Assembly: GCA_943788985.1 (NCBI GenBank)
Contig: CALSSJ010000018.1
Location: 79,093-143,092, forward strand
Length of the DNA: 64,000 nt
Direction: 5' to 3'
Source of the DNA: an uncultured Lentisphaerales bacterium
GTDB taxonomy: Bacteria; Verrucomicrobiota; Lentisphaeria; JABSQK01; UBA12247
Below the pieces are notes generated by a model. The model was not told the origin of the DNA. It did not search any database and was given only the letters and a program-made list of their open reading frames with translations. Each line of letters begins with the position of its first letter. Positions within the stretch are counted from its first letter, which is position 1. Shown here piece after piece: positions 6,183-31,027 of this stretch. The translations under genes were made by a program, and so were the position numbers.

Positions 6183-6192
6183 TCGAGTCTCG

Positions 6193-10241: not shown

Positions 10242-10263
10242 GAGCTGGCGGGTGAGAACTGGC

Positions 10264-14433: not shown

Positions 14434-14662
14434 TGCTGTAATCTATCTTGCTGTTTGACTGAATGATCAGATGACACGGTAATTGACATGGTTGACGCGG
14501 TAGGACCATCACCGAGTCACCAGGCCATCAAGTCATCCAGTGATAAGGTCAGTTGCCGGCAGTTGAACAACGCATGGGGGCGCAGTTCTACGCATCGTTA
14601 TGTTGTGTTGCAGAGTCAGCCGTGTAATACGGGAAACTTGTTCTCAATCATCCGTAGGGCCC

Positions 14663-15628
14663 ATGATGCAAAACCGATTTCTTTATTCCGCGCTTTTGGC
14701 GGCTCTCCTGTTCTCGCTGTGCGTATCGCAGGTTTGTGCAAATCCAGACATGCTTCCTAAGATCGATCAGGCGCTGGCTGGGCTAAAAACAAAGGTAGAG
14801 GTGAAAGCACCGTACAAGGTGCTGGTGTACCATCAGGCTTCTGGGTATAAGCACCCTTCCATCCCAACCATCAATACCTGCTTTCAGCGCATGGGCGAAG
14901 TCACGGGTGCCTTCAGTGCGGACCTGAGCGGCGACGCGGCAGAACTGACGGCTGAGAAGCTGAAGGGATACGACTTGGTGATTTTTAATAACACGACGAA
15001 GATTCAAAAGGTGTTTACGACGCCGGAGCATAGGGCAGCGCTGTTGGATTATGTGCGAAATGGGGGCGGCCTCGTGGCGATTCATGCTGCCACGGATGCT
15101 GGGTTCCCGCAGTGGCCGGAGTACACGAAGATGGTAGGCGGTGTCTTCGACGGCCACCCTTGGACGGCCAACGGCACGTGGGGGATTCGCATCGAAGACC
15201 CGAAGCATTGCTGCATGGATCATCTGAATGGCGAAAGCTTCACGCTGAAGGATGAGTTGTACAAGTTCAAGGAATACGATCGCGTGAATCAGCGCGTGCT
15301 GGCGACAGTAGATACACAGGTGTCGCCGAAGGGGGCTAAACAGCGCACGGACAACGATCATGCGCTGGCTTGGCTGCGCGAGTATGGCAAGGGCAAGGTA
15401 TTTGTCTCGGCATTCGGGCACAATCACTCGATTTGCTGGGATCAGCGTATTTTGCAGATGTGGCTGAACGGGATTCAGTTTGCTGCTGGGGATCTAGCCT
15501 GCGAGACCGAGGCGCTGGTGCGGCCAGAGTGGCAGAAGGAGCCAACGCCGGAGGTTAAGGAAGAACCGAAGAAAGCTAAGAAGCGGCGCAAGAAGCCAGC
15601 TCAAGGCAGGAAGAAGGCTAACCAGTAA
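14663..15628 (+). CDS. Secreted ThuA domain protein (trehalose-utilisation family)
   Basis: Signal peptide, GYKHPSI, IFNNTT, GLVAIHAATD, FDGHPW, KDELY and SAFGH motifs; Lys-rich tail. Confidence 0.85.
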   Translation: MMQNRFLYSALLAALLFSLCVSQVCANPDMLPKIDQALAGLKTKVEVKAPYKVLVYHQASGYKHPSIPTINTCFQRMGEVTGAFSADLSGDAAELTAEKLKGYDLVIFNNTTKIQKVFTTPEHRAALLDYVRNGGGLVAIHAATDAGFPQWPEYTKMVGGVFDGHPWTANGTWGIRIEDPKHCCMDHLNGESFTLKDELYKFKEYDRVNQRVLATVDTQVSPKGAKQRTDNDHALAWLREYGKGKVFVSAFGHNHSICWDQRILQMWLNGIQFAAGDLACETEALVRPEWQKEPTPEVKEEPKKAKKRRKKPAQGRKKANQ

Positions 15629-15887
15629 GCTCCCGCGCGGTGTGTCGGACCTAGCGTCGCCAGCTGCAAAACCGTCTCCACCTGCGCAGTTTGCCAGCGA
15701 TTCCGGTTCCGGATTCGCGTCGTGTGCGCTTCAATCGTTTGAATTCTGTGCGAAATCGATACAATATTGGCTTCGGGGATCTCAATCCGACAGGCTTCTC
15801 GCCTGCGTTATTCACACTAATCTACTACGAGCGCCTGATGCATTCACTCTCAGCAATTGACGTTGCTTGCCTGCTTCAGCATCTGTG

Positions 15888-16686: not shown

Positions 16687-16726
16687 GATTTTTTGATTTT
16701 CAAACGAAGAGACCGGCGAGGGCAAG

Positions 16727-17965
16727 ATGAAGAGAGTACCACTGGAAAGTTTAAATCGGCGTAGCTTTTTGAAGGTCGCCGGTACGGCGGCTGTCGGGCT
16801 GCCCAATATCATTACGTCGAATGCGCTGGGCGCGAATGGCGTGCCGGCGGCGAGCGGGCGCATCGTCATGGCCGGGCTTGGCATGGGCGGAAGAGGGCAG
16901 GGCGTCTTGGGCGAGTTCCTGAACTTCAAAGAGATCCAGGTGGTGGCTGTCAATGATGTGCAGAAGAACAACCTGAAGGGCGCTGAGAAAAGGGTTAATG
17001 GCAAATACGGCAACACCGATTGCGCAACGTACGAGGACTATCGTGAGGTACTGGCACGCAGCGATATCGACATGGTGTTCTGTGGCGCGCCGGATCACTG
17101 GCATGCCCAGATGATGGTGGATGCCTGCAAGGCTGGCAAAGATGTGATGTGCGAGAAGCCGCTGACTTTGACGATTGGCGAAGGACGTAAGATCGTGGAT
17201 GCGGCGCGTCAATACGGTCGGATTGCCGCTGGCGGGAGTCAGCGTGTGCTGCAGGATTTTGGCCGCGCAGCCTGTGCGGCGAACAGCGGGCGGTTCGGCA
17301 AGGTGCTATCGGCCAACGCCAATCCCGGCGGCCCACCTCGGCCTTGCTATCTACCAGGCCAACCTGTGCCGGACAATATCAACTGGGATCTTTGGTTGGG
17401 GCCAGCACCTTGGGCCGAGTACCATGCGTATCGCTGTGGCCGGGCCTACAACTTGGGCGGCAAGGGATTTCGCACTTGGGAAGACTACTCTGGCGGGATG
17501 ATGACGGATTGGGGCGGCCACAAGTTCGGCGCAGCTCTGCATGGCTTGAAGGTGGATCACACGGGGCCTAGCGAGATTCGTCCGCCCAAGGATGGCGAGC
17601 CTCTGACTTACGTGTTTGCGGACGGGAAGACGCTCAAGGTGCAGGACGGGCCTGCCTTTGTCTGCGAGGACGGCAATGCTGAGAAGAATAGCATCCGCGA
17701 TCTGAAGGTCCCAGCTGGGCTGCGCTGGTACTCAGGCGGGGCGAATTCGCTGGTGGGTGATTTCATTCACTGTGTCAAGACCCGGCAGTCTCCGTTTCGG
17801 GACGTGGAATGGGCGCACCGCACGGCGACGGTTTGCCATCTGGGCAATATCGCGCTGAAACTGAAGCGCCCGCTGAAGTGGGATCCGGTGAAGGAAGATT
17901 TCATCGATGATGCTGAAGCCAGCCGCATGGTCGACCGGCCTCGCCGCGGACCGTGGCAGATTTAA
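16727..17965 (+). CDS. Tat-exported Gfo/Idh/MocA family oxidoreductase
   Basis: Tat motif NRRSFLK; GLGMGGRG, APDHWH, CEKPLT, WDLWLGPAP, DYSGGMMTDWGGH. Confidence 0.9.
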   Translation: MKRVPLESLNRRSFLKVAGTAAVGLPNIITSNALGANGVPAASGRIVMAGLGMGGRGQGVLGEFLNFKEIQVVAVNDVQKNNLKGAEKRVNGKYGNTDCATYEDYREVLARSDIDMVFCGAPDHWHAQMMVDACKAGKDVMCEKPLTLTIGEGRKIVDAARQYGRIAAGGSQRVLQDFGRAACAANSGRFGKVLSANANPGGPPRPCYLPGQPVPDNINWDLWLGPAPWAEYHAYRCGRAYNLGGKGFRTWEDYSGGMMTDWGGHKFGAALHGLKVDHTGPSEIRPPKDGEPLTYVFADGKTLKVQDGPAFVCEDGNAEKNSIRDLKVPAGLRWYSGGANSLVGDFIHCVKTRQSPFRDVEWAHRTATVCHLGNIALKLKRPLKWDPVKEDFIDDAEASRMVDRPRRGPWQI

Positions 17966-17977
17966 GGGAGAGGAAGA

Positions 17978-20440
17978 ATGATGCACACATATAAACTGAT
18001 CTTTTTGGCGTTGGCGATGCTGGCGCAGTTCGCGGTTGCGGACGTCTGGGATGAGCTTGCGAGTTTTAAAGGAACTACAGCGAAGACCGCGCCGCCGACA
18101 GTGGTAGAGGATCTGATCGTCAGTACACCTGCCGATAAGATGGGGCCGATTGAGGCCAAGTTGATTGGGATCGTCACGTCGCCGGAGGCGACGGTGGAGG
18201 CGAAGCGGTTCGCGTGTCGCATGCTGCAGCGTGTGGGGACAGAGACCTGTGTTTCAGCGGTTCAAGGCTTGTTGGGCGATGCTCAGATGGCGCACTATGC
18301 GCGTCTTGTGCTCGAGCGGCTGCCGGAGTCAGCGGTAGCGGGCGATGCCTTGGTGGAGGCTTTGGATAGCGCAGCTGACGGCGCGAAGGCCGGGATTCTG
18401 AGTAGCATCGGGGTGCGTGGGGATGTGCGATCTACTGCCGCTGTTGCCGCGTATGCAGGCAGCGACAATGCGGCCCATGCGGCCGCCGCGCTTCAAGCGC
18501 TCGGGATGTTGGGCGGAGAAGCTGCCCGCGATGCGCTGGTCGCGGTAGATCTCTCGCCTAGCCCGGCGCTGCAGGCTACCCGTGATGGAGCCCTGATTGT
18601 GGCTGCCGACGGTTTGAAGGATGCCAAGACATTGGCGAGGATCTACGGGGCGACGAAGGCCGAAGGGGTGCGTATGGCTGCACTTCGCGCGCTGATTCGT
18701 GCCGATGAGGCGCAGGCTGTGCCGATCGTGAGTGGGCTGATCGCTGGTGAAGATTCCCGCGTGAGAAATGCCGCGTTGTCCGCGTTGGGCCGAGATGGCG
18801 GGGCTGCGCTCACCGCTGCGGCCGTGGCCACGCTGGGGACCCTGCCGACGGACAGGAAACTGGTCGTGATTGCAGTGCTGGGCCAACGAGGTGATGCGAC
18901 AGCTATTCCCGGGATTCAGGCGTATGTGGAAGCGGAAGATGCCGCTGTTGGGGAAGCGGCGTTGATGGCGCTGGCGGCTCTGGGTGATGGCACGACCGTG
19001 CCAATCCTGTTGGACTACGCAGAGGGGAGCCGGAAAACTGCTGCGCTGGAAGCTTTGCAGGCGATGACTCACCCAACTACGAACGGCAGTTTGATCGTTG
19101 AACTGCAGAACAATGACCGCAGTGTGGCGGCATGTGACGCTCTGGCTAGGCGCGCAGCCAAGGAAGCCAAGCCAGCTCTGAAAGCACTCACGACTCACGC
19201 TGATCCGCTGGTGCAGCGTGCTGCCTGGAGCGCGCTGGGCGCCACGGCCACGATCGCCGATCTGGATGAGTTGATGACCCAGGCGCTGTCGATTGAGGAT
19301 GCGAAGACCGCGAGAATGGTGTATGGCTGCGTGCGTGCAGTGAGTGCCGTCGCTACGGACAAAAATGCGTGTATCGAGGCTGTCGGCAGGCACTACGAGA
19401 GTGCAGATCAGTATGCCAAGATGTTTATCCTGGATCTTGCCGCAGCAGGCGGGAGCAGCAAGGGGATTGAGTACGCGAAAAGTGCGCTGGCATCTGGAGA
19501 CGAAAAGCTGTACAACAAGGCGGTGCGCTCGCTGGCAGCCTGGTTTGAACCCGGACCTGCAATAGGAGAACTACTGAATCTGGCGCGCAATGCGCCGGAA
19601 GAGAAAAATCGAATCCTTGCCCTGCGCGGGTATCTGACACTGGCGGGCAAAGAACAGAACGCGACCAAGGCACTTAAATGGTTGAAGGATGGCCGTGAGC
19701 TGGTCCAGCGTGCGGAAGACAAGCGCTTACTGATCGCCGGGACCGACCGCGGGAAAAACCACAAGCTTATCGAGTTGATTTACGGCTACACGGAGGACGC
19801 AGAGGTGTCCGCAGAGGCTCGATTGGTGGTGTTTAAGATGGCAGATCTGCTGCATCGTCGGAAGAGGCCGGTTCCAGCTGAGGCCATCACTGCTCTGAAG
19901 CTGATCGTTGCGGATCCAGCAAGCGATGCTGCGACCGTGAAGCGGTCCAAGGAAATTCTGGAGAAAGCAGCGAGTACGAAAGCCCCGAAGAAGAGGATCG
20001 CCGAGAAGAAGGCCGATATTATGCGTAACTGGCAGCTGGCTGGCCCATTCAGCGGGGCGGAAAAACTGTTTCTACACGCCTTTATCCCGGAAACTGCGGC
20101 GGGCGAGGTGACCTGGCGCGAGGTGACGGATGCGGACTTCTCTGGAGATCAGATTGACTTCATGAAGACGATGAAGGGCGCCAATCGCGTCGCTTATGTG
20201 AAGACCGTGATTCCCACGAAGAGGGCCCGGACAGCCCGGCTGGAACTGGGCAGCGACGATGGCGTGAAAGTTTGGTTGAACGGTACACTGGTGCATGAGA
20301 AAGATGCGAGGCGCGAGTGCAAGATCGGCGACGATGTCCTTAGCCTGTCTCTGGTGGAGGGGCAGAACCAACTTCTGGTTAAGGTTGTGCAGTATGCCGG
20401 GAATTGGGGATTCGGTGCTCGCCTCGCGCTAACTCCATAA
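17978..20440 (+). CDS. Secreted HEAT-repeat protein with C-terminal beta-sandwich domain
   Basis: Signal peptide, Ala-rich helical repeats, and a C-terminal NWQLAGPF..GSDDGVKVWLNG..NQLLVKV domain. Confidence 0.75.
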   Translation: MMHTYKLIFLALAMLAQFAVADVWDELASFKGTTAKTAPPTVVEDLIVSTPADKMGPIEAKLIGIVTSPEATVEAKRFACRMLQRVGTETCVSAVQGLLGDAQMAHYARLVLERLPESAVAGDALVEALDSAADGAKAGILSSIGVRGDVRSTAAVAAYAGSDNAAHAAAALQALGMLGGEAARDALVAVDLSPSPALQATRDGALIVAADGLKDAKTLARIYGATKAEGVRMAALRALIRADEAQAVPIVSGLIAGEDSRVRNAALSALGRDGGAALTAAAVATLGTLPTDRKLVVIAVLGQRGDATAIPGIQAYVEAEDAAVGEAALMALAALGDGTTVPILLDYAEGSRKTAALEALQAMTHPTTNGSLIVELQNNDRSVAACDALARRAAKEAKPALKALTTHADPLVQRAAWSALGATATIADLDELMTQALSIEDAKTARMVYGCVRAVSAVATDKNACIEAVGRHYESADQYAKMFILDLAAAGGSSKGIEYAKSALASGDEKLYNKAVRSLAAWFEPGPAIGELLNLARNAPEEKNRILALRGYLTLAGKEQNATKALKWLKDGRELVQRAEDKRLLIAGTDRGKNHKLIELIYGYTEDAEVSAEARLVVFKMADLLHRRKRPVPAEAITALKLIVADPASDAATVKRSKEILEKAASTKAPKKRIAEKKADIMRNWQLAGPFSGAEKLFLHAFIPETAAGEVTWREVTDADFSGDQIDFMKTMKGANRVAYVKTVIPTKRARTARLELGSDDGVKVWLNGTLVHEKDARRECKIGDDVLSLSLVEGQNQLLVKVVQYAGNWGFGARLALTP

Positions 20441-20537
20441 AAAAAGATGTATTATGATTTGCGTGCTATAGTACCCAGCAATTTGAGTCATGTTCGCGAT
20501 TGCGGGAAAAACGGTTAACAAACGGGGAGAAGGCAAA

Positions 20538-22193
20538 ATGGATAATCAGCAAGATCAAGCGGTAGCCAGTCAGACGGGAAGCCACCACGGGCTTAGTGAA
20601 CGAGAAAAAATAATGTTGTTCTGGGCGAGTTTTCTTGCTCTGACAGCGGCGGGTGTCGGCTTTGTGCTGCGTTCGCTAGCGGGGACTCAACATTGGGGCG
20701 CCGCCTTCGAAATCACCAACGATCAGGTAGGGGCCTTGTTTGGCGCTGGTCTGTGGCCGATCGCGATCACCATGATCCTTTTTAGCCTGGTCGTAGATAA
20801 GGTCGGGTACAAGGCGTCGATGATGTGTGCGTTCGCGCTGCAGGGGATTGCCGCGGTGTTGACGATCTATGCCAACAGCTTTAACACCATGCTTGTGGCT
20901 TGCCTGGTTGCGGGCCTTGGCCATGGTATCGTCGAAGCCTGCATTAACCCGCTCTGCGCCTCCATCTATCGGGACCAGAAGAGCAAGATGTTGAACATCC
21001 TACATGCTTCTTGGCCGGCAGGTATCGTGATTGGCGGCGTGGTCTATCTGACCATGTTTACGGGCGCCACAAGCTGGGCCGAGGTAAGTGGCTCTTTCTG
21101 GTTCATGTTCCTGCCTGTGATCGCCTATGGCGTGATGTTCCTGATGTGCCATCACTACCCGGTCGACGAGCGTGTCGAAGCCAAAGTGCCGATGAGCGAG
21201 ATGCTCAAGGAATTTGGCGGGCTTGGTGCCTTTATCGCCATCACCTTTCTATTCTACGAAATCTCGAACCAGGTCCCCGCACTGGGTGCAGCGCTGGCTG
21301 GCGACATGGGGCCATTGCCTAAAAAGCTAGCAGTCAGTATCATTGTCGGGATCATTGGCGGCGCGTTTTTTGGCGGCGTGGTTAAGTCCCGTGGTAAGAT
21401 TCTGTTCTTTATCCTCTGCCTGATTATGATTCCACTGGCCACTGCGGAGATCGCAACGGACGGTTGGATTCAGAAGCTGATGCGCCCGACCATGGGCGAG
21501 TATGCGGGCTGGGCGCTGGTTTTCTCAGCCGGGATTATGATGGGACTGCGCTTCTTCGCTGGTGTACCGCTGAAGTTTATGTCGCCTCCAGGACTGTTGC
21601 TGCTTAGCTCGGTGTTTTCGATCATCGGCTTGTTCGCGCTATCGATGGCTGACGGTCTTCTGGTCTGGTTTGCCTTTGTCTTCTACGCCATCGGCCAGAC
21701 CTTCTACTGGCCTACGGTTCTTGGCTTTGTCGCCGAGCAGTTTCCGAAGGGCGGGGCGATGACCTTGAATACGGTTTCAGCGATGGGACTGCTGACGGTA
21801 GGCATTTTTGGCTTTCCCTTTCTTGGCGCGGTGCAGGATGCCTACACGACCAAAGCCGTGGAGAAGACTCAGCCAGCGTTGGTCCAGAGCTTGCGGGCTG
21901 AAGGAACCACCTTTACCAACGCCGAGGGCGCAGATGTGCCGATCCTTAACAGGAACCGTCTCTTCGGTGTGAAGTACGATGCGATCAATGCCGAAGAGGT
22001 CAAAAAGCAGATCACAGATGAAGCTGCGCTCGCCGTTCTCGACAAGGATCTCACGCAAGTAGGACGCAGTACGCTGCGAGTCGCGGCTGTATTGCCGAGC
22101 ATCATGGCGATCTCCTTCTTGCTGATCATGATCTGGTATCGCAGTCAGGGTGGATATAAACCTGTGCATCTGGTCCACGAGGAAGACGCCTGA
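20538..22193 (+). CDS. MFS transporter (probable sugar/glycoside permease)
   Basis: 12 or more TM helices; LVVDKVGYK, GLGHGIVEACINPL, LNILHASWPAG, FPKGGA. Confidence 0.85.
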   Translation: MDNQQDQAVASQTGSHHGLSEREKIMLFWASFLALTAAGVGFVLRSLAGTQHWGAAFEITNDQVGALFGAGLWPIAITMILFSLVVDKVGYKASMMCAFALQGIAAVLTIYANSFNTMLVACLVAGLGHGIVEACINPLCASIYRDQKSKMLNILHASWPAGIVIGGVVYLTMFTGATSWAEVSGSFWFMFLPVIAYGVMFLMCHHYPVDERVEAKVPMSEMLKEFGGLGAFIAITFLFYEISNQVPALGAALAGDMGPLPKKLAVSIIVGIIGGAFFGGVVKSRGKILFFILCLIMIPLATAEIATDGWIQKLMRPTMGEYAGWALVFSAGIMMGLRFFAGVPLKFMSPPGLLLLSSVFSIIGLFALSMADGLLVWFAFVFYAIGQTFYWPTVLGFVAEQFPKGGAMTLNTVSAMGLLTVGIFGFPFLGAVQDAYTTKAVEKTQPALVQSLRAEGTTFTNAEGADVPILNRNRLFGVKYDAINAEEVKKQITDEAALAVLDKDLTQVGRSTLRVAAVLPSIMAISFLLIMIWYRSQGGYKPVHLVHEEDA

Positions 22194-22209
22194 CCGGCTG
22201 CGGCAGACT

Positions 22210-23595
22210 ATGCAAAAAAGGAAGAACGAGATGAACGCATCCGAAAGTTCTGAGGGAGTAACTCGCAGAGATTTTGTTCGCTCGGTGGCGGCAGCCGGGG
22301 CTGTGCTTGCAGCCAACGGTGCCCCGCTGGCCCGAGCTACGAATGCCGCTGCGTTGAGTGCAGATACGCTCAATGTGGCTGTGATCGGCACTGGCCAGCA
22401 GGGCAAGGGAGCTTTGATTGAGTCTTCCGTACCTGCGATTCCAGGCATCCGCTACAAAGCGGTTTGTGACATTTGGGATAAGAACCGGAATGCTGCGGTC
22501 GACTATCTGAAGCTCTATGGCCATGAGCCCAAAGCCTACGTGGATTACCAGGAAATGCTCGCTGCGGAGACCGATCTGGATGCGGTGATCGTGGCGACTC
22601 CCGACTGGATGCACGCCGAGCACACTATTGCCGCCCTAGAGGCTGGCCATCATGTGTACTGCGAGAAGGAAATGTCCAACTCGCTTACCGGCGCGCGGGA
22701 CATGGTTCTGGCTGCACGTAAGGCCGGAAAGCTGCTGCAAATTGGGCATCAGCGTCGCAGCAACCCGCGCTATATTCACGCGGTCCAGCGGCTGGTGCAC
22801 GACCAGAAGCTGCTCGGGCGGGTTACCCATGCAAATGCCCATTGGAACCGCTCTATCGCCGCAGCCCGTGACATCGGCTGTAGCTACGCTGATGTGCTGC
22901 CAGCGGCCACGCTGGCGAAGTATGGCTATGCCTCGATGCAGCAGTTCTTGAACTGGCGTTGGTATAAAAAGTACGGTGGTGGTCCGATTGTGGATCTAGG
23001 CTCGCATCAGATCGATCTTTTTGAGTGGGTCTTCGAGACCACACCACGGTCCGTGGTTGCCTCAGGGGGGATCGACTTCCACACGCATCACGAGTGGTAT
23101 GACAACGTCTTGTGCATTTATGAGTACGAGACCGATCACGGCATCTGCCGCGCGTTCTATCAGACGCTCACCACTAGTTCACACGGCGGAAACTCCGAAG
23201 CTTTCATGGGCGAGAACGGCACGCTGCTGATCTCCGAAGTGGAAGCACGCGGTAACGCGGTCGAGAAAGAGAAGCATGCGCCGGATTGGAACATTCTAGT
23301 GCAGCAGGGGCTGCTGAAGGCAGAAGGCCAGAAGGTCGTGCAGACCAAGACCAAGAATACGTGGCTGGATGCTCGCGAGAGTCCCGGATTGCCCGCTTGG
23401 CCGCTGCCGATTGAGCTGGCCAAGAAGCCGCATCAACCGCACATGGAGAATTTCTTTGACACCATTCGTGGCAAGTCGGAGCTGAATTGTCCCGGGGAAG
23501 TCGGCTATGCGACAGCGTTTGCGGTACTGGCGGTCAATGAAGCGGTGCGTACCAATGAGCGCATTATCTTTACGCCCTCCGATTTTCACGTATAA
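22210..23595 (+). CDS. Tat-exported Gfo/Idh/MocA family oxidoreductase
   Basis: Tat motif TRRDFVR; VIGTGQQG, ATPDWMH, YCEKEM, NWRWYKKYGGG..DLGSHQID. Confidence 0.9.
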   Translation: MQKRKNEMNASESSEGVTRRDFVRSVAAAGAVLAANGAPLARATNAAALSADTLNVAVIGTGQQGKGALIESSVPAIPGIRYKAVCDIWDKNRNAAVDYLKLYGHEPKAYVDYQEMLAAETDLDAVIVATPDWMHAEHTIAALEAGHHVYCEKEMSNSLTGARDMVLAARKAGKLLQIGHQRRSNPRYIHAVQRLVHDQKLLGRVTHANAHWNRSIAAARDIGCSYADVLPAATLAKYGYASMQQFLNWRWYKKYGGGPIVDLGSHQIDLFEWVFETTPRSVVASGGIDFHTHHEWYDNVLCIYEYETDHGICRAFYQTLTTSSHGGNSEAFMGENGTLLISEVEARGNAVEKEKHAPDWNILVQQGLLKAEGQKVVQTKTKNTWLDARESPGLPAWPLPIELAKKPHQPHMENFFDTIRGKSELNCPGEVGYATAFAVLAVNEAVRTNERIIFTPSDFHV

Positions 23596-26552
23596 TGCAT
23601 AGAAACCTGATGCCAAAATTTACCGCGGTCGTCCTACTCCTAGCGATTGCCTGGACTGTCTCAGCGGCACACGATTGGGACGGCAGCCCGGTTCTGCCCG
23701 TGCATCGTATTCCGCTGCACGATGAAGATGGCGTGAAGATTCTGTCCGATGCGGAGAACGCCAAGCCGATCTCCGCCCGGGCTACCTGTATCCAGTGCCA
23801 TGACTACGACGCCATCCAGACCGGTTGGCATTTTAGTAGCGAGGGCGATCTCGAAGGACGCGCGACAGAACCTTGGGTGATGGTGGACGAGAAGTCCGGC
23901 ACGCAGTTGCCGATTTCTCGCCGTGGTGCTGCTGGCACTTGGGCACCAGAGCATCTCGGGATGTCGGACTGGGACTTCATCAAGCAGTTCGCGCGTCACA
24001 TGCCTGGCGGCGGGCCAGGGGAGGGCGAGCGTGCCGCTGCGGATCCGGACTCGCGCTGGACCGTCTCTGGGGATCTAGAGATCAACTGCTTTGTCTGTCA
24101 CAACACTGGACCGCATCAGGATATGACCGAGTGGGTCAAACAGATCGCGCGGGAGAATTTTCGCTGGGCGGCCACGGCGGCTGCCTGCCTAGGCGAAGTC
24201 AGCGGCATGGCCGCGCGCCTGCCAGCCACTTGGAATCCCTCCGACGGCCCGGACCCGGATGACCTGATCTATCGCGTACCACCGAGCGTGACCTATCCCG
24301 AGACGCTTTTCGACAGCAAAGACCGCGTGGTTCTCGATTTGGGCAAGCCGACTGACGCTCGCTGTATTCAATGTCACGCTGTTGCCGAAGTCGGCAAAGC
24401 CAAGCATCATGTCACCGGCGATATTCACACGCGGGCCGGAATGGATTGTATAAGCTGCCATAGCAACGGGATCGACCACAAGATCGATCGCGGTTCTACC
24501 GGCGCGTTTTCCTGCGCTGGCTGCCATGGGCTGGAGGACAGCGAGGCTGATATTGGGTCCTATGGGGCACCTATTCCCGAGCACAAAGGCCTGCCACCGA
24601 TCCATCTAGAGAAAATGGCCTGTACCGCGTGCCATTCCGGTGTAGCGATCGACCACGGTCCTTCACTGGTGCGGACGTCCAAGATTAACCGGCTGGGGAT
24701 CCACGGCCGGGCACAGTGGATGATTGAAGCACCGCAGATTCTCGAGCCAATCTTCAAACGCGACGGATCCGGCAAGATTGCCCCGCATCGCATGATGTGG
24801 CCCGCCTTCTGGGCACGGAGTAGTGGCGATGACCTGAAGCCGCTGGACGCGCAGGACGTGATGGCCCAGAGCAGCGACATTCTGGATCCTGCCATGGTTG
24901 TGGCGAGCGTCTTGTCCCGGCTTGGCAAGATCAAGGACCAAGACGGGTATGCTTACGGGCAGCCGGTGTTCGTCAGCGATGGCATCGTCTACCAGTCGAC
25001 AGCGGATGGTGGTCTGGACCAGCACCCGTACAACGGGGAGATTCCAGGAGCGTTTCGTTTCGGCTACATTGTAGATAACGCACTGCTGCCGATTGCGGAG
25101 CCGTACGACGCGGAGGAGGAGAATGGCTTCTATTATCTCGACGAGAGCCGTCAGGAGCATGTGATCAGCGTCTTGACTGCGTTGGCGGAGATCGCGCCCG
25201 ATGGTACTACACCCGCCTGGATTCTGGGCTCGAAGCTGCATAGACTTCAGAATGTAGAGTACGCATTGTTGCCCGCCGAGGAGTTTGCCCAGCTCAAGCA
25301 GGACGCCGAGAAGGCAAAGGTGGCTGTCACGACGCTGGCGACGAAGCTGGACGTCGCTACTGAAGTGGATGGCACCAAGCAGAAGTTCTATCGCAAGAGC
25401 GACAAGACCGAGCTCAAGGCGTCGCGCTCGAAGACGCCAGAGCTCTACAAGCTCAAGGTGCTAATGAAGGAACAGCGCAAGGCCGAAGCGAAGCTGAGCG
25501 AGCTGGAAGTCATTGGCGACAAGGCCTATCGTAACACCTTCCAAAAGAACACCTCGCAGTACCCGGTGATCGAAGAGTTCAAAGGAACATCTAATACTGC
25601 CTGGGGCTGGGTGAAAGATGATCAGGCTCAACCGCTTGTACCGGACTATGTCGGTGCGTTCGTGACCGCGACAGGAGGTGGCGACACCGTTGCATTTACG
25701 GAGAAACAGATCGCCATGGCTTTGGAAAAGCTAGGCGAGGACGTGGTCTACGTTTCAGGGGGAAAGGTCTTTAGTCGCAACGCGGATGGCTCGCTGAAGG
25801 CGTCTGAGCATCAGCGGGCGGAGCCGGTATCCTGGCCGCTCGGTCATGATGTGCGGCCAGCCGCACAATCGCTCGGTGCCAAGGGCTGCGCAGAATGTCA
25901 CAGCGCCGACGCGCCCTTCTTGTTTGCGAACGTTGCAGCGCAGGGGCCGTTGCAGTCAGACCAGACTGCCACAGCAACCATGGCTGCCCACATGCAGCTG
26001 GACAGCAGCTATCATCAGCTCTTCGGCCTGAGCTTCACTACCAGGCCGCTGTTCAAGGCGATCATGCTGGCCCTAGCCATCATCGCCTTGCTGGTGCTGG
26101 CGGCCTACGCCCTGTCTGGCATTCGAGGACTGTCGCAGCGGGCCGAGAAGCCAAAGCTGGCAGCAGCTGCGATGACCGTAGGGGCGATTTCAACTGTGAT
26201 CCTCGCCCTCACCGGTTTTGGCGGAGACTGGACTGGTGGGCTGGGGGGCTATATGCTGCTTGTTCACGTAGGCGTGGGCGGACTGTTTGCTGCCTGCCTT
26301 GCCTTGGTTGCGTTGCTGAAAGCCCACGATCATGGCGCAGGAGGCTCGTGTTACGCTCGGAACGCTAGTTTCTGGACCATGATTGTCTGCGGAATTGTCT
26401 TGATTCTCAGCATTCTCGTGTCGATGGTGCCACTGCTCGGAACTGCCGGGCAGCACAGCGCTCTCCAGGTGCATGAAATCGCCGCGGCGGTGTTCCTGGT
26501 GGCGGCAGCCGTCTACGCGATCTCTAGACGGAGCTGCAAGTCGGGAGCATAG
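23595..26552 (+). CDS. Multiheme (7xCxxCH) cytochrome c, OTR/MmcA-like, with C-terminal multi-TM module
   Basis: Signal peptide; CxxCH at 23787, 24087, 24363, 24447, 24513, 24621 and 25887; about 5 C-terminal TM helices with His residues (LLVHVG, LQVHEI); TAATG overlap with the upstream gene. Confidence 0.85.
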   Translation: MHRNLMPKFTAVVLLLAIAWTVSAAHDWDGSPVLPVHRIPLHDEDGVKILSDAENAKPISARATCIQCHDYDAIQTGWHFSSEGDLEGRATEPWVMVDEKSGTQLPISRRGAAGTWAPEHLGMSDWDFIKQFARHMPGGGPGEGERAAADPDSRWTVSGDLEINCFVCHNTGPHQDMTEWVKQIARENFRWAATAAACLGEVSGMAARLPATWNPSDGPDPDDLIYRVPPSVTYPETLFDSKDRVVLDLGKPTDARCIQCHAVAEVGKAKHHVTGDIHTRAGMDCISCHSNGIDHKIDRGSTGAFSCAGCHGLEDSEADIGSYGAPIPEHKGLPPIHLEKMACTACHSGVAIDHGPSLVRTSKINRLGIHGRAQWMIEAPQILEPIFKRDGSGKIAPHRMMWPAFWARSSGDDLKPLDAQDVMAQSSDILDPAMVVASVLSRLGKIKDQDGYAYGQPVFVSDGIVYQSTADGGLDQHPYNGEIPGAFRFGYIVDNALLPIAEPYDAEEENGFYYLDESRQEHVISVLTALAEIAPDGTTPAWILGSKLHRLQNVEYALLPAEEFAQLKQDAEKAKVAVTTLATKLDVATEVDGTKQKFYRKSDKTELKASRSKTPELYKLKVLMKEQRKAEAKLSELEVIGDKAYRNTFQKNTSQYPVIEEFKGTSNTAWGWVKDDQAQPLVPDYVGAFVTATGGGDTVAFTEKQIAMALEKLGEDVVYVSGGKVFSRNADGSLKASEHQRAEPVSWPLGHDVRPAAQSLGAKGCAECHSADAPFLFANVAAQGPLQSDQTATATMAAHMQLDSSYHQLFGLSFTTRPLFKAIMLALAIIALLVLAAYALSGIRGLSQRAEKPKLAAAAMTVGAISTVILALTGFGGDWTGGLGGYMLLVHVGVGGLFAACLALVALLKAHDHGAGGSCYARNASFWTMIVCGIVLILSILVSMVPLLGTAGQHSALQVHEIAAAVFLVAAAVYAISRRSCKSGA

Positions 26553-26557
26553 GGTTA

Positions 26558-27334
26558 GTGGCCTACAGCTTTCATCATAGCGCCATGAACTCGCCCTTCG
26601 AGATTCACATTGCCGGGCAGGACGAGAACTATGCGCGGCAAGCTGCCGGTGCGTTTTTCCGGGGCATCGACCATCTGGAAAACAATCTCAGCCGCTTTCT
26701 CGAGGACAGCGATATCGCGCGCATTCGACTCTTAATGCCAGGGCAAGTGTTACAAGTGAGCCCAGAGACGATGGAGTGCCTGCTGGTCGCCCTTTGGGCC
26801 TATCGCGAGACCAGTGGAGCTTTCGATGTCATGCTCGGCGAGGGTATGGATGCGTTGCGCCTGGACCCGGAGAGATTGAGCGTGAGCTGCGAACTCCGCA
26901 ACCCGGCCGTAGACCTCGGCGGAATTGGCAAAGGCTTTGCGCTTGATCGGGGTGCCGAGATCATGGCAGAGTGGGATATTGAGCATGCGCTGCTGGTGGC
27001 TGGCCCCAGTACGATGCTGGCGCTGGGATCGCAGGATGGTGTGCCGTGGTCCGTCGGGCTCAACGGCACAGCAGTAGACTTAGAGGATCAAGCGCTGAGC
27101 GCGTCCGGGAAGGATGTCCAGGGCGCTCATGTGCGCGACCCGCGAGCTGGCGTCGAAGCCACAGGTCACGAAAAGGCCTGGGTACTGTGCCCGTCTGCCG
27201 CGCTGGCGGATGCGCTCTCCACAGCCTTTATGGTGATGAATCGCGAAGAGGTCGCAGACTTCTGCCGAACTCATCCAGAAATCCGGAGTCATGTTTTAGA
27301 CCAACATAGTACGTTTACATCTTACAATCAGTAA
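26558..27334 (+). CDS. apbE: FAD:protein FMN transferase (ApbE family), no signal peptide
   Basis: LSRFLEDSDIARI, TSGAFDV, VDLGGIGKGFALDR, HVRDPR, ADALSTA. Confidence 0.88.
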   Translation: MAYSFHHSAMNSPFEIHIAGQDENYARQAAGAFFRGIDHLENNLSRFLEDSDIARIRLLMPGQVLQVSPETMECLLVALWAYRETSGAFDVMLGEGMDALRLDPERLSVSCELRNPAVDLGGIGKGFALDRGAEIMAEWDIEHALLVAGPSTMLALGSQDGVPWSVGLNGTAVDLEDQALSASGKDVQGAHVRDPRAGVEATGHEKAWVLCPSAALADALSTAFMVMNREEVADFCRTHPEIRSHVLDQHSTFTSYNQ

Positions 27335-27359
27335 TCCCACACAAACGACAGGACACACC

Positions 27360-28013
27360 ATGAAGACCACTCTCACACTCGCAGTACTCCTCCTCTTTAG
27401 CGCGCCTGCTATGATGGCCCAAGCCGTAGTCCCGCTGAAGATTGAGTTGCCTAAGCCGATGTTTGTCGGGACGCCGAAGACGGTGAAGTCCGGCAATCTT
27501 GAAGCGGATCGCAAGAAGAAGCCACGCCCACCGGTCATGGTCCCGAAGGACGTCGAAAATGTGGCCGCAGACATGGTCGTGAGCAGCAGCGACATGTTTC
27601 CCGTGATCGGCGATCTTGAGCTGGCAACCGACGGCGACAAGGAAGGTGCCGATGGCAGCTTTGTCGAGCTCGGCCCAGGCAAGCAGTACATCCAGATTGA
27701 TCTCGAAGAAACCCGCGCGATCTACGCCATTGTAATCTGGCACTTCCACAGCCAGGCCCGCGTCTATCGCGACGTGGTAGTGCAGGTTGCCGATGATGAG
27801 GACTTCATCACCAACGTGCGCACGATCTTCAACAACGACCACGACAACTCCTCTGGGCTTGGCATTGGCACGGACAAAGAGTATATCGAGACCTTCGAAG
27901 GCCGGCCGCTGGCAGTAAAAGGCGAGAAGGCACAATTTGTCCGTCTCTACAGCAATGGCAGCACGTCCAGCGAAATGAATCACTACACGGAGGTCGAAGT
28001 CTACGGCAAGTAG
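27360..28013 (+). CDS. Secreted hypothetical protein with discoidin/galactose-binding-like fold
   Basis: Signal peptide; LATDGDKEG, YIQIDLE..IYAIVIWHFH, AQFVRLYSNG, NHYTEVEVYG. Confidence 0.65.
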   Translation: MKTTLTLAVLLLFSAPAMMAQAVVPLKIELPKPMFVGTPKTVKSGNLEADRKKKPRPPVMVPKDVENVAADMVVSSSDMFPVIGDLELATDGDKEGADGSFVELGPGKQYIQIDLEETRAIYAIVIWHFHSQARVYRDVVVQVADDEDFITNVRTIFNNDHDNSSGLGIGTDKEYIETFEGRPLAVKGEKAQFVRLYSNGSTSSEMNHYTEVEVYGK

Positions 28014-28053
28014 GCCGACCACACCGCACGTCGACAGAAACAAGGCCCGCTCG

Positions 28054-29619
28054 ATGAATACAACAGTTTTTCGAGTGGGCTTTGTGGTTTGTGTGCTGGT
28101 TGCCGCGCTGTTTCGGGTCATCGATCTCGAGCAGCGCGTTCTGCACAATGACGAGGCCAATCAAGCCTGTCGAGCGGGGCTCTTGCTGGAAGGCGCTGGC
28201 TACCACTACGATCCAGTAGACCATCATGGGCCGACGCTCTACTACCTCTCTTTGCCGTTCGCTTGGCTCAGCGCTGGTACTGACTTCAGCCGGACTTCGG
28301 CCGTAACCTACCGGCTCCTCCCAGCGCTATTCGGGATTGGCGTTTTGCTGTTGTTGCTGCTATTTCGAGATAGGCTGGGAAGGCCAGCGGTCTTGGCCAC
28401 CGCGGCACTGCTGGCAGTCTCACCAGCGATGGTTTATTACAGCCGCTTCTATATTCAGGAAATGCTCCTAGTCTTCTTTACCGCAGCGGTAATCGTCTGC
28501 GGCTGCCGCTACAGCCGGTTTCCGGGCGTGCGCCAGGCAATGAGCGTCGGACTGTTTCTAGGCCTGATGCATGCGACCAAAGAAACCTGCATCATCGCCT
28601 ATGCCTGCCTCGGCGCCGCGATTCTCCCCGCGCTGATCGACATGATGCGCAAGGGTGCTGAAGCGCGGCGCCAGCTGCTCCAGCACGGTCTAGTTATGGT
28701 GGCCGTGGCTGTCGCCGTTTCCGCCATGATCTTTTCCTCGTTCTTCACCCATCCCATGGGCATCATTCACTCGTATACGGCTTACCTGAACTATCTGCCG
28801 CAAGGGATTGGCGTCGATACAGACCATGTCCAGCCCTTCATGTTCTACCTCAAGATCTTGATTGGGCAGACAAAGGGCGGGCTATTCTGGAGCGAATGGC
28901 CAATCATGCTGCTGGGCCTGACAGGCATCGGATTTTCCGTTACTGGTGCTTCCCGCTGGCTGCCTGACCTTCACCGTGGCTTGGCGCGATTTCTCGTCAG
29001 CTACACCGTGCTGATGACGTTGGCCTACTCGTTGATTGCATACAAAACACCGTGGTGCATGCTCTCTTTTCTCTTCGGCTGGATCCTGCTGGCCGGGATT
29101 GGGGCTGCCGGGCTTTTCGCATCCTGCAAACCACGCGCTCTGCAGGCGGTGCTTGTGGTTCTAGTGTTGGCGGGCGTTTCGCTGCTGGGGCGCTCTGCGC
29201 AGCGAGCGAGTTTTCGGTATGGCGCAGATACGCGAAATCCATACGCCTACTCCCATACGGTCTCCGATCTGCTGAATCTGGTCAAGCGTGTCAATGCCGT
29301 TACGGCACTGGGAGATGGCTACGCTGCAAAGATTGCCATCGTCACCAATGCCCAAGACGCCTGGCCCTTGCCCTGGTACCTGCGTACCTACCCGAACACC
29401 GGATACTGGTCCACGCAGGACGCTATCCCGGAGGCCTTCGCGCCGGACATCATTGTCTGCTCACTCGAGCATGAGCCTGCGGTCACTGAATCTGTGGGAG
29501 ACGACTTCATCTCAGAGTACTGGGGCCTGCGCAACGAGGTCGTTCTCGCTTTGTACTTGCGGCGTGACCTTTGGGATCGCTTCATGGAATCGCGCATCAA
29601 GAGTCATCCAACTAATTAA
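28054..29619 (+). CDS. TIGR03663/Agl23-like GT-C (PMT-like) integral membrane protein
   Basis: LHNDEA, YDPVDHHGPTLYY, SPAMVYYSRFYIQE, HATKET, YKTPW, WPLPWYLR; many TM helices. Confidence 0.78.
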   Translation: MNTTVFRVGFVVCVLVAALFRVIDLEQRVLHNDEANQACRAGLLLEGAGYHYDPVDHHGPTLYYLSLPFAWLSAGTDFSRTSAVTYRLLPALFGIGVLLLLLLFRDRLGRPAVLATAALLAVSPAMVYYSRFYIQEMLLVFFTAAVIVCGCRYSRFPGVRQAMSVGLFLGLMHATKETCIIAYACLGAAILPALIDMMRKGAEARRQLLQHGLVMVAVAVAVSAMIFSSFFTHPMGIIHSYTAYLNYLPQGIGVDTDHVQPFMFYLKILIGQTKGGLFWSEWPIMLLGLTGIGFSVTGASRWLPDLHRGLARFLVSYTVLMTLAYSLIAYKTPWCMLSFLFGWILLAGIGAAGLFASCKPRALQAVLVVLVLAGVSLLGRSAQRASFRYGADTRNPYAYSHTVSDLLNLVKRVNAVTALGDGYAAKIAIVTNAQDAWPLPWYLRTYPNTGYWSTQDAIPEAFAPDIIVCSLEHEPAVTESVGDDFISEYWGLRNEVVLALYLRRDLWDRFMESRIKSHPTN

Positions 29620-29682
29620 ACTGGCCTTGCGCAGGCGAGGCTGTGCGATATTTGTCATATCATTTCAGAAAGGATATTTTTT

Positions 29683-30534
29683 ATGAATAGAACGCTCTCG
29701 ATTTTTCTGTGCACATTCATCGCGATTGGCGTCGCGACCGCCGCGGACAACAAGCCTGTAAAGGCGCCAATTGTTGGCTATTCCGATACACCGCAGCTTC
29801 CATCCGGCTGGCGGGTGCACGACATCGACCGACCGCAGCCCAAGGTGGTCACCCCTGCAGCCAAGCCGGGGGGGGCACCATCCGACGCTATCATTCTGTT
29901 CGACGGGACAGACTTGGCCAGCTGGGTTGGCCGCAAGCAAGAAAACCCTAAGAAGAAGAGGTACAACGCCAAGGGCGAGGCGCTGTGGAAAGTGGCGAAT
30001 GACTATATGGAGGTCACGTCGACTGGCGGGATCAGGACCCGACAGAAGTTTGGCGATTGCCAGCTTCATATCGAGTGGCAGACGGAGAATCCGCCCCGTG
30101 GCGATTCTCAGCACCGCGGCAACAGCGGTGTGTTCTTTATGGGCCGCTACGAGATGCAGGTGCTGGATTGCTACGAAAACCGTACTTACGCTGACGGCTC
30201 CGCCGGTTGTATCTACGGGCAGACTGCACCGCTGGTCAATGCCTGTCGCAAGCCAGGCGAGTGGCAGGTGTACGACATTATTTTTCAGGCCCCCCGGTTC
30301 AAGGATGGCAAGCTTGTTTCACCCGCCTACATGACGACCTTCTTCAACGGTGTCCTGGTGCAGCACAAGACTGAGCTGCTTGGCCCAACCACGCATAAGC
30401 GGCTGCCGAAATACAAAGCCCATGGGGCGAAGGAATCGATTTCCCTGCAGGATCACGGCAATCCCACACGCTTTCGCAATATCTGGATTCGCGAGCTAAA
30501 TCTCGTAGAGAGCACTGGCAAGAAGGGAGAATAA
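29683..30534 (+). CDS. DUF1080 (3-keto-disaccharide hydrolase-like) secreted protein
   Basis: APSDAIILFDG, FGDCQLHIEW, GNSGVF, YEMQVLD, GEWQVYDI, LQDHGNPTRFRNIW. Confidence 0.88.
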   Translation: MNRTLSIFLCTFIAIGVATAADNKPVKAPIVGYSDTPQLPSGWRVHDIDRPQPKVVTPAAKPGGAPSDAIILFDGTDLASWVGRKQENPKKKRYNAKGEALWKVANDYMEVTSTGGIRTRQKFGDCQLHIEWQTENPPRGDSQHRGNSGVFFMGRYEMQVLDCYENRTYADGSAGCIYGQTAPLVNACRKPGEWQVYDIIFQAPRFKDGKLVSPAYMTTFFNGVLVQHKTELLGPTTHKRLPKYKAHGAKESISLQDHGNPTRFRNIWIRELNLVESTGKKGE

Positions 30535-30756
30535 CGGCTCAATTCTTGTTGCTGCAGATGGGATCTACACCAGGCTTGCTGTTTCATCTTGGCTATCGGT
30601 ATGGCCTTGGGACAAACTGTTGCGGCGGTCTGCTCTTTGGCGACAACCGTGGCATTCAACGTGCCAGATCCACCGCCGGACTACCAACCTGGCGATGAGT
30701 GGAGTTTTATCTACAACGCCCGCTGAATCTGGGGGGCATGTTTAGTAAGAGCGCGT

Positions 30757-31000
30757 ATGGACCTGATGCGGTGGGGTAGGGGCCTCTATGAGCATGCTGT
30801 GGGCGGCTGGCTGAACCCGCTTGGGTTGGACGCGCACACTGATGCACGCAAAGTGCTGAAGAAAGATGAGTGGAATCGGATCACCATCCAAGCAGTGGGC
30901 GACACCATCAAGACCTGGCTAAATCACGTGCCAGCTGCGCACTGGAAAACCGATAAATACACGCAGGGCTTCTTTAGTCTGGGAGCGCAGACGGGCCGCC
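30757..31000 (+). pseudogene. DUF1080 fragment
   Basis: GLYEH..GGWL..KDEWNRITIQAVGDTIKTWLN..GFFSL; lacks the N-terminus and the final motifs. Confidence 0.55.
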
Positions 31001-31027
31001 TGCATTCTTCCTCGTTTCGGCGGCAAT

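Follow-up and report, generated by a model that had tools for sequence, protein, structure and literature searches.

Between positions 16727 and 30534, the 64,000-nucleotide stretch analyzed here (the window), from a contig of an uncultured Lentisphaerales bacterium, carries nine genes that a sequence-only reading had proposed to form a periplasmic glycoside-oxidation and electron-transfer cluster. We found that this nine-gene set is made up of a conserved core of five or six genes together with lineage-specific sugar-pathway accessories, and that the hosts of the core, many of them uncultured and a few in culture, are bacteria of the Planctomycetes-Verrucomicrobia-Chlamydiae (PVC) group and Aminicenantes. 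The core consists of a Gfo/Idh/MocA dehydrogenase (GfoB) predicted to be exported by the twin-arginine translocation (Tat) pathway, a heptaheme cytochrome c with a membrane domain, an ApbE-family protein, an exported discoidin protein and a GT-C-like membrane protein. Judged from sequence, gene order and gene fusions, the core may be a periplasmic sugar or glycoside dehydrogenase:menaquinone oxidoreductase. This is the reading that we favor, although we hold it with slightly less than even confidence.

A conserved core and its hosts

Twenty-three homologs of the cytochrome were aligned, and the alignment was used to fetch 80 loci, with flanks of up to 10 kb, from contigs representing one genome per species. 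The window proteins were mapped onto these loci by tblastn and by hidden Markov models (HMMs) at the level of open reading frames (ORFs). Most of the loci come from metagenome-assembled genomes (MAGs), and part of these evidently bear a wrong taxon label. A search of 185,579 species genomes located relatives of the cytochrome in at least 552 stretches, and an exhaustive profile search (E up to 1e-30) resolved the family into 493 clusters at 50% identity. The core follows a fixed order: GfoB, cytochrome, a four-helix membrane domain that is either fused to the cytochrome or encoded by a separate ORF, ApbE, discoidin protein and GT-C. In all of the loci in which at least 1400 nt precede the cytochrome gene (68/68), its immediate upstream neighbor is a GfoB ortholog (at least 45% identity), and these cytochrome-adjacent orthologs share 49-84% identity with the GfoB of the window. 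Counting from the first in-frame start of the cytochrome, GfoB runs 4 nt into the cytochrome gene in 37 of the 68 loci, and in 14 others no more than 30 nt separate the two. In the window itself the overlap is 1 nt; the TAATG at 23593-23597, said to join the two genes, could be read directly from the sequence. Where the downstream sequence was long enough, ApbE was present after the cytochrome in 57 of 61 loci; the corresponding figures are 50 of 57 for the discoidin gene and 37 of 51 for GT-C. Loci lacking GT-C fall mainly in a Verrucomicrobia/Lentisphaerae-type group that retains ApbE and one or two discoidin genes. A soluble glycosyltransferase of family GT2 is encoded after GT-C in 16/80 loci. 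In four loci, 5-9 kb of other genes stand between the cytochrome and ApbE, and in some Kiritimatiellales/Pontiellaceae loci an ORF of the PD-(D/E)XK nuclease family (PF13366) lies in this position (L006, 12514-13326, and L013, 12531-13244, both on the + strand).

The GfoB genes of these loci are more than neighboring members of a large family. Of the 131 Gfo-like ORFs of these loci that were placed in a tree, the 65 next to the cytochrome grouped with the GfoB of the window in one clade of 67 leaves (support 0.856), and because these copies form a clade of their own, GfoB represents a dedicated ortholog group rather than any Gfo paralog. Co-regulation alone would hardly account for the strict adjacency together with the 4-nt overlaps and the dedicated GfoB clade. 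The order oxidoreductase-cytochrome-apbE-glycosyltransferase, on whose conservation the cluster proposal had been made to depend, is thus clearly kept in other genomes. As to the nine genes forming one cluster, the core part of that claim stands, while GfoA, HEAT, MFS, DUF1080 and the nearby ThuA proved variable. A single conserved operon of all nine genes was rejected, as the accessories come and go between loci.

The 80 loci are labeled as Aminicenantes/Acidobacteriota (29), Kiritimatiellia (15), Eubacteriales/Clostridiales (15), Verrucomicrobiota (6), Planctomycetota (4) and Lentisphaerae (2), among others. A tree of the N-terminal cytochrome domain separated an Aminicenantes-type clade (19 rows) from a PVC-type clade (20 rows), with the window sister to locus L001. 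The Aminicenantes-type clade takes in all rows labeled Eubacteriales/Clostridiales (eight in the tree), and since these rows nest among Aminicenantes, the labels are probably wrong. The MAGs that carry Aminicenantes-type modules under such labels are L018, L021, L023, L031, L033, L037, L038 and L040, together with L042, L044, L057, L065, L074, L077 and L079; L033/L039 and L044/L048 are near-identical pairs in the cytochrome tree. Matrices of pairwise distances, computed over 39 loci for each of GfoB, cytochrome, ApbE and discoidin, are correlated with r = 0.79-0.93, which fits inheritance as a unit, although these values are confounded by shared ancestry, which alone would also yield correlation.

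The proposed path from GfoB to the quinone pool

GfoB is encoded at 22210..23595 (+), where an ATG at 22210 opens the gene 16 nt after its upstream neighbor; an alternative opening of the same ORF is the GTG at 22150. The protein matches PF01408 and PF22725/PF02894, and GfoA, the other Gfo/Idh/MocA oxidoreductase of the set, matches PF01408 and PF19051, in all cases above cut-off. Across 55 GfoB orthologs, the glycines G60, G62 and G65 of the GxGxxG motif are invariant, as are E152, K153, D262 and D269, with H266 nearly so; the motif is EKE and not EKP. Signal peptides and topology, here and below, were judged by eye and from hydropathy rather than with a trained predictor. Both oxidoreductases have Tat-like N-termini of the RRxF type. 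For GfoB, R19 and F22 are invariant in the 55 orthologs and the second R belongs to the consensus; for GfoA, the Pfam TAT_signal match (17.6 bits) is below cut-off. The two enzymes are 31% identical over the N-terminal 170 residues (the Rossmann half) only. Against the BT_2158 model (NF058561, cut-off 750 bits), GfoA and GfoB score 117 and 81 bits, respectively, over model positions 1 to ~255 only, and with scores so far below 750 neither can be called a BT_2158 equivalog. The PDB sequence matches of GfoB are generic family members, for example DgpA and GFOR. We propose that GfoB is the catalytic subunit of the core module, an assignment drawn from its conserved motifs and its position.

The cytochrome gene occupies 23595-26552 (+) and encodes 985 residues. 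Its periplasmic part (23595..26036, +) comprises a signal peptide with a hydrophobic N-terminus, a six-heme N-terminal module, a middle region and the seventh heme, and its C-terminal part (26037..26552, +) is a five-helix membrane region in which an anchor helix precedes a four-helix cytochrome-b561/FdnI-like domain. All seven CxxCH motifs (C65, C165, C257, C285, C307, C343 and C765) are invariant in 73 homologs, and among the further histidines six are invariant and two nearly invariant. This number of conserved histidines suffices for bis-His ligation of every heme, so that an electron wire would be expected rather than a catalytic heme. The family assignment rests on a match to PF14537 (Cytochrom_c3_2) of 32.7 bits. 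No Pfam family was found for residues 401-740, and a domain scan of 23 homologs revealed no additional domain. Within this region, at residues ~555-650, the window protein and its closest relatives (P0002, P0005, P0006 and P0010) have an insertion of ~95 residues rich in charged amino acids that other members do not have. The best protein match, a partial record, comes from a Lentisphaeria MAG and is 100% identical, and a PDB sequence search matched only short heme-motif stretches of NrfA.

The C-terminus of the cytochrome shows five hydrophobic peaks by hydropathy, and its last four helices are a separate ORF in many loci and fused in others. The split-off membrane ORFs of L016 and L019 match PF01292 (cytochrome b561/Ni_hydr_CYTB) with 66.6 and 82.2 bits (E 3e-18 and 5e-23), respectively, and also match the HMM of the window-type domain (4e-18 and 6e-15). 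Because the split ORFs match both, PF01292 homology of the window domain is supported transitively. Atlas neighbors of the whole cytochrome likewise include fusions of multiheme c domains with Ni_hydr_CYTB. The cytochrome had been described as membrane-anchored; the C-terminal helices are indeed present, but they amount to more than an anchor, probably being a domain of the cytochrome-b561/FdnI type, which points to the quinone pool. We propose this region as the quinone-facing end of the module.

Gene order, conservation, domain content, heme and Tat motifs and the fusions are shown directly by the sequences. From them the following path can be drawn, in which the physical complex, the direction of electron flow, the substrate, the quinone and the targets of ApbE and GT-C are inferred. 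GfoB would fold and bind NAD(P) in the cytoplasm, would then be exported by Tat, and would oxidize a hydroxyl of a sugar or glycoside in the periplasm, by analogy at C3. Its electrons would pass along the seven bis-His c-hemes of the cytochrome, whose gene follows and overlaps that of GfoB, enter the cytochrome-b561/FdnI-like membrane domain and finally reach menaquinone. The potential rises from about -320 mV for NAD(P)H to about -74 mV for menaquinone, so that this transfer is downhill. Within this path the step from NAD(P)H to heme is the weak point, as NAD(P)H cannot readily reduce hemes without a flavin, and a need for flavin at this step would be the obvious reason for the presence of ApbE. 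Thus ApbE, discoidin and GT-C, with GT2 where present, may constitute a maturation or modification sub-module needed by the redox part, most likely installing a covalently bound flavin and/or a glycan; such a flavin would let two-electron hydride chemistry feed one-electron hemes. The sugar context supports this proposal, since ThuA, DUF1080, Tat-type Gfo paralogs, a TIM barrel and a cytoplasmic Gfo enzyme recur near the core. GfoA, HEAT, ThuA, DUF1080 and MFS could serve as interchangeable accessories of a 3-keto-glycoside pathway that process and import the products, and in other genomes the cytoplasmic Gfo enzyme and the xylose-isomerase-like TIM barrel could fill a similar role. As for the hosts, Pontiella strains, which are related to module-bearing Pontiellaceae, are described as producing menaquinones and as having genes for fumarate reductase, nrfAH, cydAB and ccoNOP (PMC7356697).

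The general kind of system is already known. Formate dehydrogenase-N (FdnGHI) and membrane-bound [NiFe] hydrogenases follow the overall plan proposed here, with a Tat-exported catalytic subunit, an electron-transfer subunit anchored by a C-terminal helix and a four-helix cytochrome b that faces the quinone pool, and the membrane domain here appears to be related to theirs through PF01292. The module would differ in having c-hemes in place of Fe-S clusters and NAD(P) in place of Mo or NiFe. A full transmembrane redox loop is doubtful here, because most members, including that of the window, keep only two histidines on the periplasmic side. Sugar dehydrogenases of three subunits that work with cytochrome c, among them Caulobacter LacABC and the FAD-dependent glucoside 3-dehydrogenases, offer a second parallel: a periplasmic, Tat-dependent sugar or glycoside dehydrogenase is joined through a c-type cytochrome subunit to the respiratory chain. 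In these enzymes, the catalytic subunit is an FAD flavoprotein of the GMC (glucose-methanol-choline) type. Here, by contrast, it is a Rossmann enzyme of the Gfo/Idh/MocA family, the cytochrome has seven hemes and its own cytochrome-b-like membrane domain, and ApbE, discoidin and GT-C are without counterpart in those systems. Both LacABC and ThuAB are called cytochrome c-dependent in the literature (PMC8121099).

The same source links DUF1080 and Tat-exported Gfo-type enzymes in periplasmic 3-keto-disaccharide catabolism, as the sequence-only reading had it, and describes in Bacteroides thetaiotaomicron the locus BT2157-BT2159, with a Tat-exported Gfo-like dehydrogenase, an exported DUF1080 hydrolase and a partner of the epimerase/TIM-barrel type (PMC8121099). 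BT2157, the DUF1080 protein, hydrolyses 3-keto-trehalose, and the electron-accepting partner of BT2158, the Gfo-like enzyme, is "as yet unidentified" in the words of its authors (PMC8121099). The window similarly holds Tat-type Gfo enzymes and a DUF1080 protein, and related loci hold the TIM barrel, whereas no cytochrome partner is mentioned for the Bacteroides locus in the available part of that source (PMC8121099). CbcL of Geobacter sulfurreducens, an inner-membrane quinone oxidoreductase with nine c-hemes and a diheme b domain (PMC9129911), resembles the window protein in combining, in one polypeptide, a periplasmic multiheme c domain with bis-His hemes and a membrane domain, which is of the b type in CbcL and probably so in the window protein, the comparison being one of architecture and not of sequence. 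As described, CbcL has nine c-hemes, six helices and two b-hemes against seven c-hemes, five helices and two conserved histidines here, and its partners are periplasmic cytochromes and not a dehydrogenase (PMC9129911).

What appears to be new, judging by the sequences, is a periplasmic dehydrogenase-cytochrome-quinone type of system that comes with an unexplained sub-module of ApbE, GT-C and discoidin. In agreement with the view that no characterized system has this gene combination, full-text literature searches, with supplementary tables outside their scope, found no description of it, and the available parts of two genome papers sharing related terms held nothing on the cluster. In bacteria that degrade glycans, Tat-exported Gfo/Idh/MocA dehydrogenases are very common, and the re-oxidation of periplasmic NAD(P)H is an acknowledged gap to which the module offers a testable answer in the form of a dedicated heme wire to the quinone pool. 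As the cytochrome family occurs in lineages usually called fermenters, the host organisms may respire with periplasmic sugars. Genetics and biochemistry may be possible, given that Pontiellaceae records without a MAG label (L012-L014) carry the module.

The ApbE, discoidin and GT-C genes and competing explanations

The ApbE gene (26558..27334, +; 258 aa) begins with a GTG at 26558, five nt past the TAG of the cytochrome gene at 26550-26552, a spacing that had been noted before and that we read directly from the sequence. Its product, a member of a divergent subfamily, matches Pfam ApbE (PF02424) with 119.7 bits and keeps the AMxT, GKG, H-x-x-DP and D..ST motifs; the histidine of H-x-x-DP and the D..ST motif align to solved ApbEs and are conserved in 62 orthologs. 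A deletion of 8 residues next to the catalytic histidine removes the DYxxYF-type segment of the solved proteins. The ORF of the window cannot be extended upstream, and in all ApbE orthologs the HRFxHEAMxT segment begins 5-12 residues after a plausible start codon, which by inspection leaves no room for a signal peptide in the cluster ApbE. The Verrucomicrobia-type loci L053 (3-1124), L059 (203-1300) and L072 (3-1208) each carry, ~9 kb upstream of the module and on the + strand, another ApbE gene whose product does have a lipobox.

Thirty-nine longer relatives of ApbE were found, of which 26 are fusions carrying PMT/PMT_2 (GT-C) domains. In the four GT-C fusions that were scanned, GT-C precedes ApbE with no helix between them. 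One further relative is a GT2-ApbE fusion, again with no helix between the domains, and in another ApbE is followed by a signal-like helix and then by ThuA-DUF1080; five weaker matches join FMN_bind to ApbE in the usual manner. A cytoplasmic location of the fused ApbE is favored by the absence of signal peptides and by the helix-free GT2 fusion. ApbE is thus tied to glycosylation genes and sugar-pathway accessories and not visibly to a redox protein. The motif [S/T]GA[S/T] marks all ApbE substrates described in a survey of flavinylation, in which ApbEs without a signal peptide were discarded (bioRxiv 10.1101/2021.01.07.425746). At any one alignment position it reaches at most 2/62 sequences in GfoB, 0/54 in discoidin, 1/39 in GT-C and 1/73 in the cytochrome. 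The earlier idea of dedicated flavinylation, with ApbE putting flavin mononucleotide (FMN) on an extracytoplasmic redox protein, is therefore not supported in that form, given the lack of a signal peptide, the lack of an acceptor site and the GT-C fusions. The text of two flavinylation surveys contains neither "Gfo" nor "glycosyltransferase". As in the known ApbE systems (Nqr, Rnf, NosR, PplA, DUF2271 and DUF3570), an ApbE-family gene with the family motifs kept lies inside an extracytosolic electron-transfer cluster; the cluster ApbE differs from them in having no signal peptide, no acceptor site in its conserved neighbors, the 8-residue deletion and the fusions to GT-C or GT2.

Together, the ApbE without a signal peptide, its fusions to GT-C and GT2 and the lack of a canonical site would be compatible with attachment of flavin by an undescribed route, a speculation that we regard as a long shot. 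In this version FMN may be loaded, still in the cytoplasm, on a polyprenyl-phosphate-sugar carrier or on GT-C itself, and may then be flipped and delivered to a periplasmic acceptor, for example discoidin, GfoB or the cytochrome. If true, a flavin tethered by a glycan or lipid would link the heme wire to the NAD(P)H bound by an exported enzyme of the Gfo/Idh/MocA family. More modestly, ApbE may add flavin to GfoB at a non-canonical position while this Tat substrate is still in the cytoplasm. Either way, the ApbE/GT-C fusion is an unexplained link of flavin transfer with lipid-linked glycosylation.

The exported, probably discoidin-type (F5/8 type C) protein that follows (27360..28013, +; 217 aa) is encoded 25 nt after ApbE. 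It scores 27.3 bits on PF22633 (F5_F8_type_C_2; cut-off 27.8) and 21.6 bits on PF00754 (cut-off 28.2); an Atlas model of the exact protein has a predicted template modeling (TM) score, pTM, of 0.85, and its neighbors are all of the F5/8 type, with TM scores of 0.90-0.95. Across phyla the protein keeps 50-84% identity and a conserved N-terminal motif, LPKPMFxGTP. The same unit, including the LPKPMFxGTP leader, occurs as tandem repeats in 478 longer PVC-type proteins, which makes it a general exported module that is not unique to the cluster. The GT-C-like membrane protein (28054..29619, +; gap 40 nt) belongs to the TIGR03663/Agl23 family, with 192 bits on TIGR03663 (cut-off 126), 38.9 bits on PMT and a match to PMT_2. 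It has a DE motif after the first helix and a pattern H-h-D-E-A conserved in 39 orthologs, and hydropathy gave 11 peaks with a 15-residue window or 10 with a 19-residue window. PDB sequence searches with the GT-C and discoidin proteins gave no match. TIGR03663 is the family of Haloarcula Agl23, reported as a putative hexose-phosphate-dolichol flippase working with Agl22 (PMC11182771). In Haloarcula hispanica, Agl22 and Agl23 thus provide a parallel, a TIGR03663 protein with a glycosyltransferase partner for hexose-phosphate-polyprenol (PMC11182771), from which the present case differs by its bacterial host, its setting in a redox cluster and the fusion of the C-terminus to ApbE in many relatives.

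Several observations count against a dehydrogenase that feeds menaquinone. The flavin that the NAD(P)H-to-heme step would need has no evident source: periplasmic installation is left unaccounted for by an ApbE without a signal peptide, a conserved [S/T]GA[S/T] site is absent from all core proteins, and the recurrent fusion partner of ApbE is GT-C and not a redox protein. Four loci (L041, L061, L065 and L070) are without ApbE, discoidin and GT-C within 5-10 kb, and GT-C is absent in 14/51. The GfoB ortholog of L012 has RN in place of RR in its Tat motif, and the likeness of GfoB to the BT_2158 model is limited to the Rossmann half (81 bits against a cut-off of 750). The membrane domain of the window scores 19.1 bits on PF01292, below the cut-off of 30.1, and in all forms of the domain only two histidines are conserved, both near periplasmic helix ends. 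Lastly, Pontiella strains are described as growing only fermentatively (PMC7356697).

Among the other explanations, it is possible, though unlikely, that the module serves envelope or glycoprotein biogenesis and builds a modified glycan rather than catabolizing sugars. GT2 would make a polyprenyl-phosphate hexose, the Agl23-like GT-C would flip it or transfer its hexose, the discoidin protein would be an acceptor or lectin, GfoB would oxidize the lipid- or protein-linked sugar in the periplasm and the cytochrome would only dispose of electrons. DprE1, which acts on decaprenyl-phosphoribose, is a loose parallel for such a role of GfoB. The confident TIGR03663 membership of GT-C fits this scheme, as do the fusions of ApbE to GT-C or GT2, the use of the discoidin unit as a general repeat of PVC surface-type proteins (the 478 longer proteins) and the GT2 gene next to GT-C in 16/80 loci, which mirrors the Agl22/Agl23 pair as described (PMC11182771). 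However, the genes that recur nearby, namely those for ThuA, DUF1080, the TIM barrel, the cytoplasmic Gfo enzyme and MFS, are of the catabolic type, no aminotransferase or other gene for sugar tailoring turned up in the conserved neighborhood, and GT-C is missing in those 14 of 51 loci while GfoB is never missing.

Reverse electron flow, which we consider rather improbable, would use the same parts and the same synteny as the dehydrogenase that we favor: menaquinol would reduce the cytochrome, and GfoB would act as a periplasmic keto-sugar or carbonyl reductase, an electron sink for fermenters. Many hosts are indeed fermenters and the Gfo family includes reductases, with 1,5-anhydro-D-fructose reductase among the PDB matches of GfoB. 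Yet the passage of electrons from menaquinol to bound NAD(P)+ would be uphill by ~250 mV on the potentials given above, and the DUF1080 and ThuA neighbors point to the formation of keto-sugars and not to their removal. Quite improbable, too, is that the cytochrome is a CbcL-like quinol oxidase for acceptors outside the cell or in the periplasm, such as metals, anthraquinone disulfonate (AQDS) or sulfur, next to a merely co-regulated GfoB that recycles its own cofactor as GFOR does. The architecture is CbcL-like, a redox-neutral recycling of the cofactor has been proposed for BT2158 (PMC8121099), and Kiritimatiellales are described as reducing AQDS, metals and sulfur by unknown routes (PMC7356697). 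Against this stand the 68/68 adjacency, the 4-nt overlaps and the dedicated GfoB clade, as well as the description of K. glycovorans as reducing the same acceptors without quinones or c-type cytochromes (PMC7356697). Finally, it is highly improbable that these genes are unrelated, share no function and stand together by chance or simply through inheritance: although most of the evidence is gene order in MAGs and distance correlations are confounded by descent, the same order is found in both deeply separated cytochrome clades (PVC-type and Aminicenantes-type) with differing flanks, gene overlaps are frequent and ApbE fusions of three kinds combine proteins from this one neighborhood, and adjacency by chance was rejected because the core order recurs in loci from several phyla.

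Accessory genes and other features of the window

The ORF coordinates confirmed that all nine genes lie on the + strand with short gaps (5 to 63 nt, in addition to the single 1-nt overlap), and the family names given to the nine proteins were supported by Pfam and NCBIfam, the discoidin match being slightly under the Pfam cut-off. The first gene, at 16727..17965 (+), encodes GfoA, a Tat-type Gfo/Idh/MocA oxidoreductase with a GFO_IDH_MocA_C2 C-terminal domain (Pfam, NCBIfam). It is followed after 12 nt by an exported HEAT-repeat protein of 820 aa (17978..20440, +; HEAT_2, 81 bits) with a C-terminal domain of ~160 aa that gave only weak GH2_N/PA14 Pfam matches; a PDB sequence search with this protein returned only artificial alpha-repeat and other HEAT proteins. 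After a further 49 nt comes a transporter of the major facilitator superfamily (MFS; 20490..22193, +; 567 aa; MFS_1, 58.8 bits), which directly precedes GfoB. The last gene of the set, 63 nt after GT-C, encodes an exported DUF1080 (3keto-disac_hyd) protein (29683..30534, +; PF06439, 143.3 bits) with a hydrophobic N-terminus. A ThuA-family protein with an N-terminal signal-like segment (14600..15628, +; Pfam ThuA, 161.9 bits) is encoded outside the nine-gene span.

Among the 80 loci, GfoA-like genes were found in 16, HEAT in 19, ThuA in 15, DUF1080 in 15 and a relative of the MFS gene in 3. HEAT accompanies 15 of the 16 GfoA-like genes, and the DUF1080 gene is often on the opposite strand in related loci. 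In other genomes a cytoplasmic Gfo enzyme of 390 residues and the xylose-isomerase-like TIM barrel are encoded directly upstream of GfoB, the TIM barrel being present in 38/80 loci.

Scans for sigma-70 promoters and terminators gave counts at the level of shuffled sequence (8 against 6.6 expected and 22 against 15.1 expected, respectively) and were uninformative on transcription units, and an Rfam search of 13500-31500 gave no match. Two short overlapping ORFs, 15867-16334 and 16321-16686 (+), separate ThuA from GfoA. The first matches no family, and the second matches only the C-terminal part of models of S-adenosylmethionine (SAM)-dependent methyltransferases; the pair (15867-16686) may be a frameshifted methyltransferase gene that interrupts the sugar cluster.

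Sugar genes also lie closer to the start of the window, where a GH95-like ORF (105-1826), an ABC sugar transporter (6172-9367) and a sulfatase (10264-11841) were seen. In the same part, a 945-residue protein (3230-6067, +) combines a GDSL lipase with DUF7133 and a weak C-terminal cytochrome c match, and a small protein (9540-10421, -) has two cytochrome c stretches, so that the window holds further exported heme-type proteins near sugar genes. Downstream of the cluster, a Na+/H+ exchanger (PF00999) is split over 32878-34047 and 33797-34588 (+) in different frames, probably as a result of a frameshift or assembly error, and its second part runs into PTS_EIIA_2. A single ORF of ~6,488 residues occupies 37145-56611 (-). 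No Pfam match was obtained for its last 1,488 residues, and its first 5,000 contain 11 Big_13 stretches, FG-GAP repeats, Cadherin, Calx-beta and GEVED, the make-up of a giant adhesin-like surface protein.

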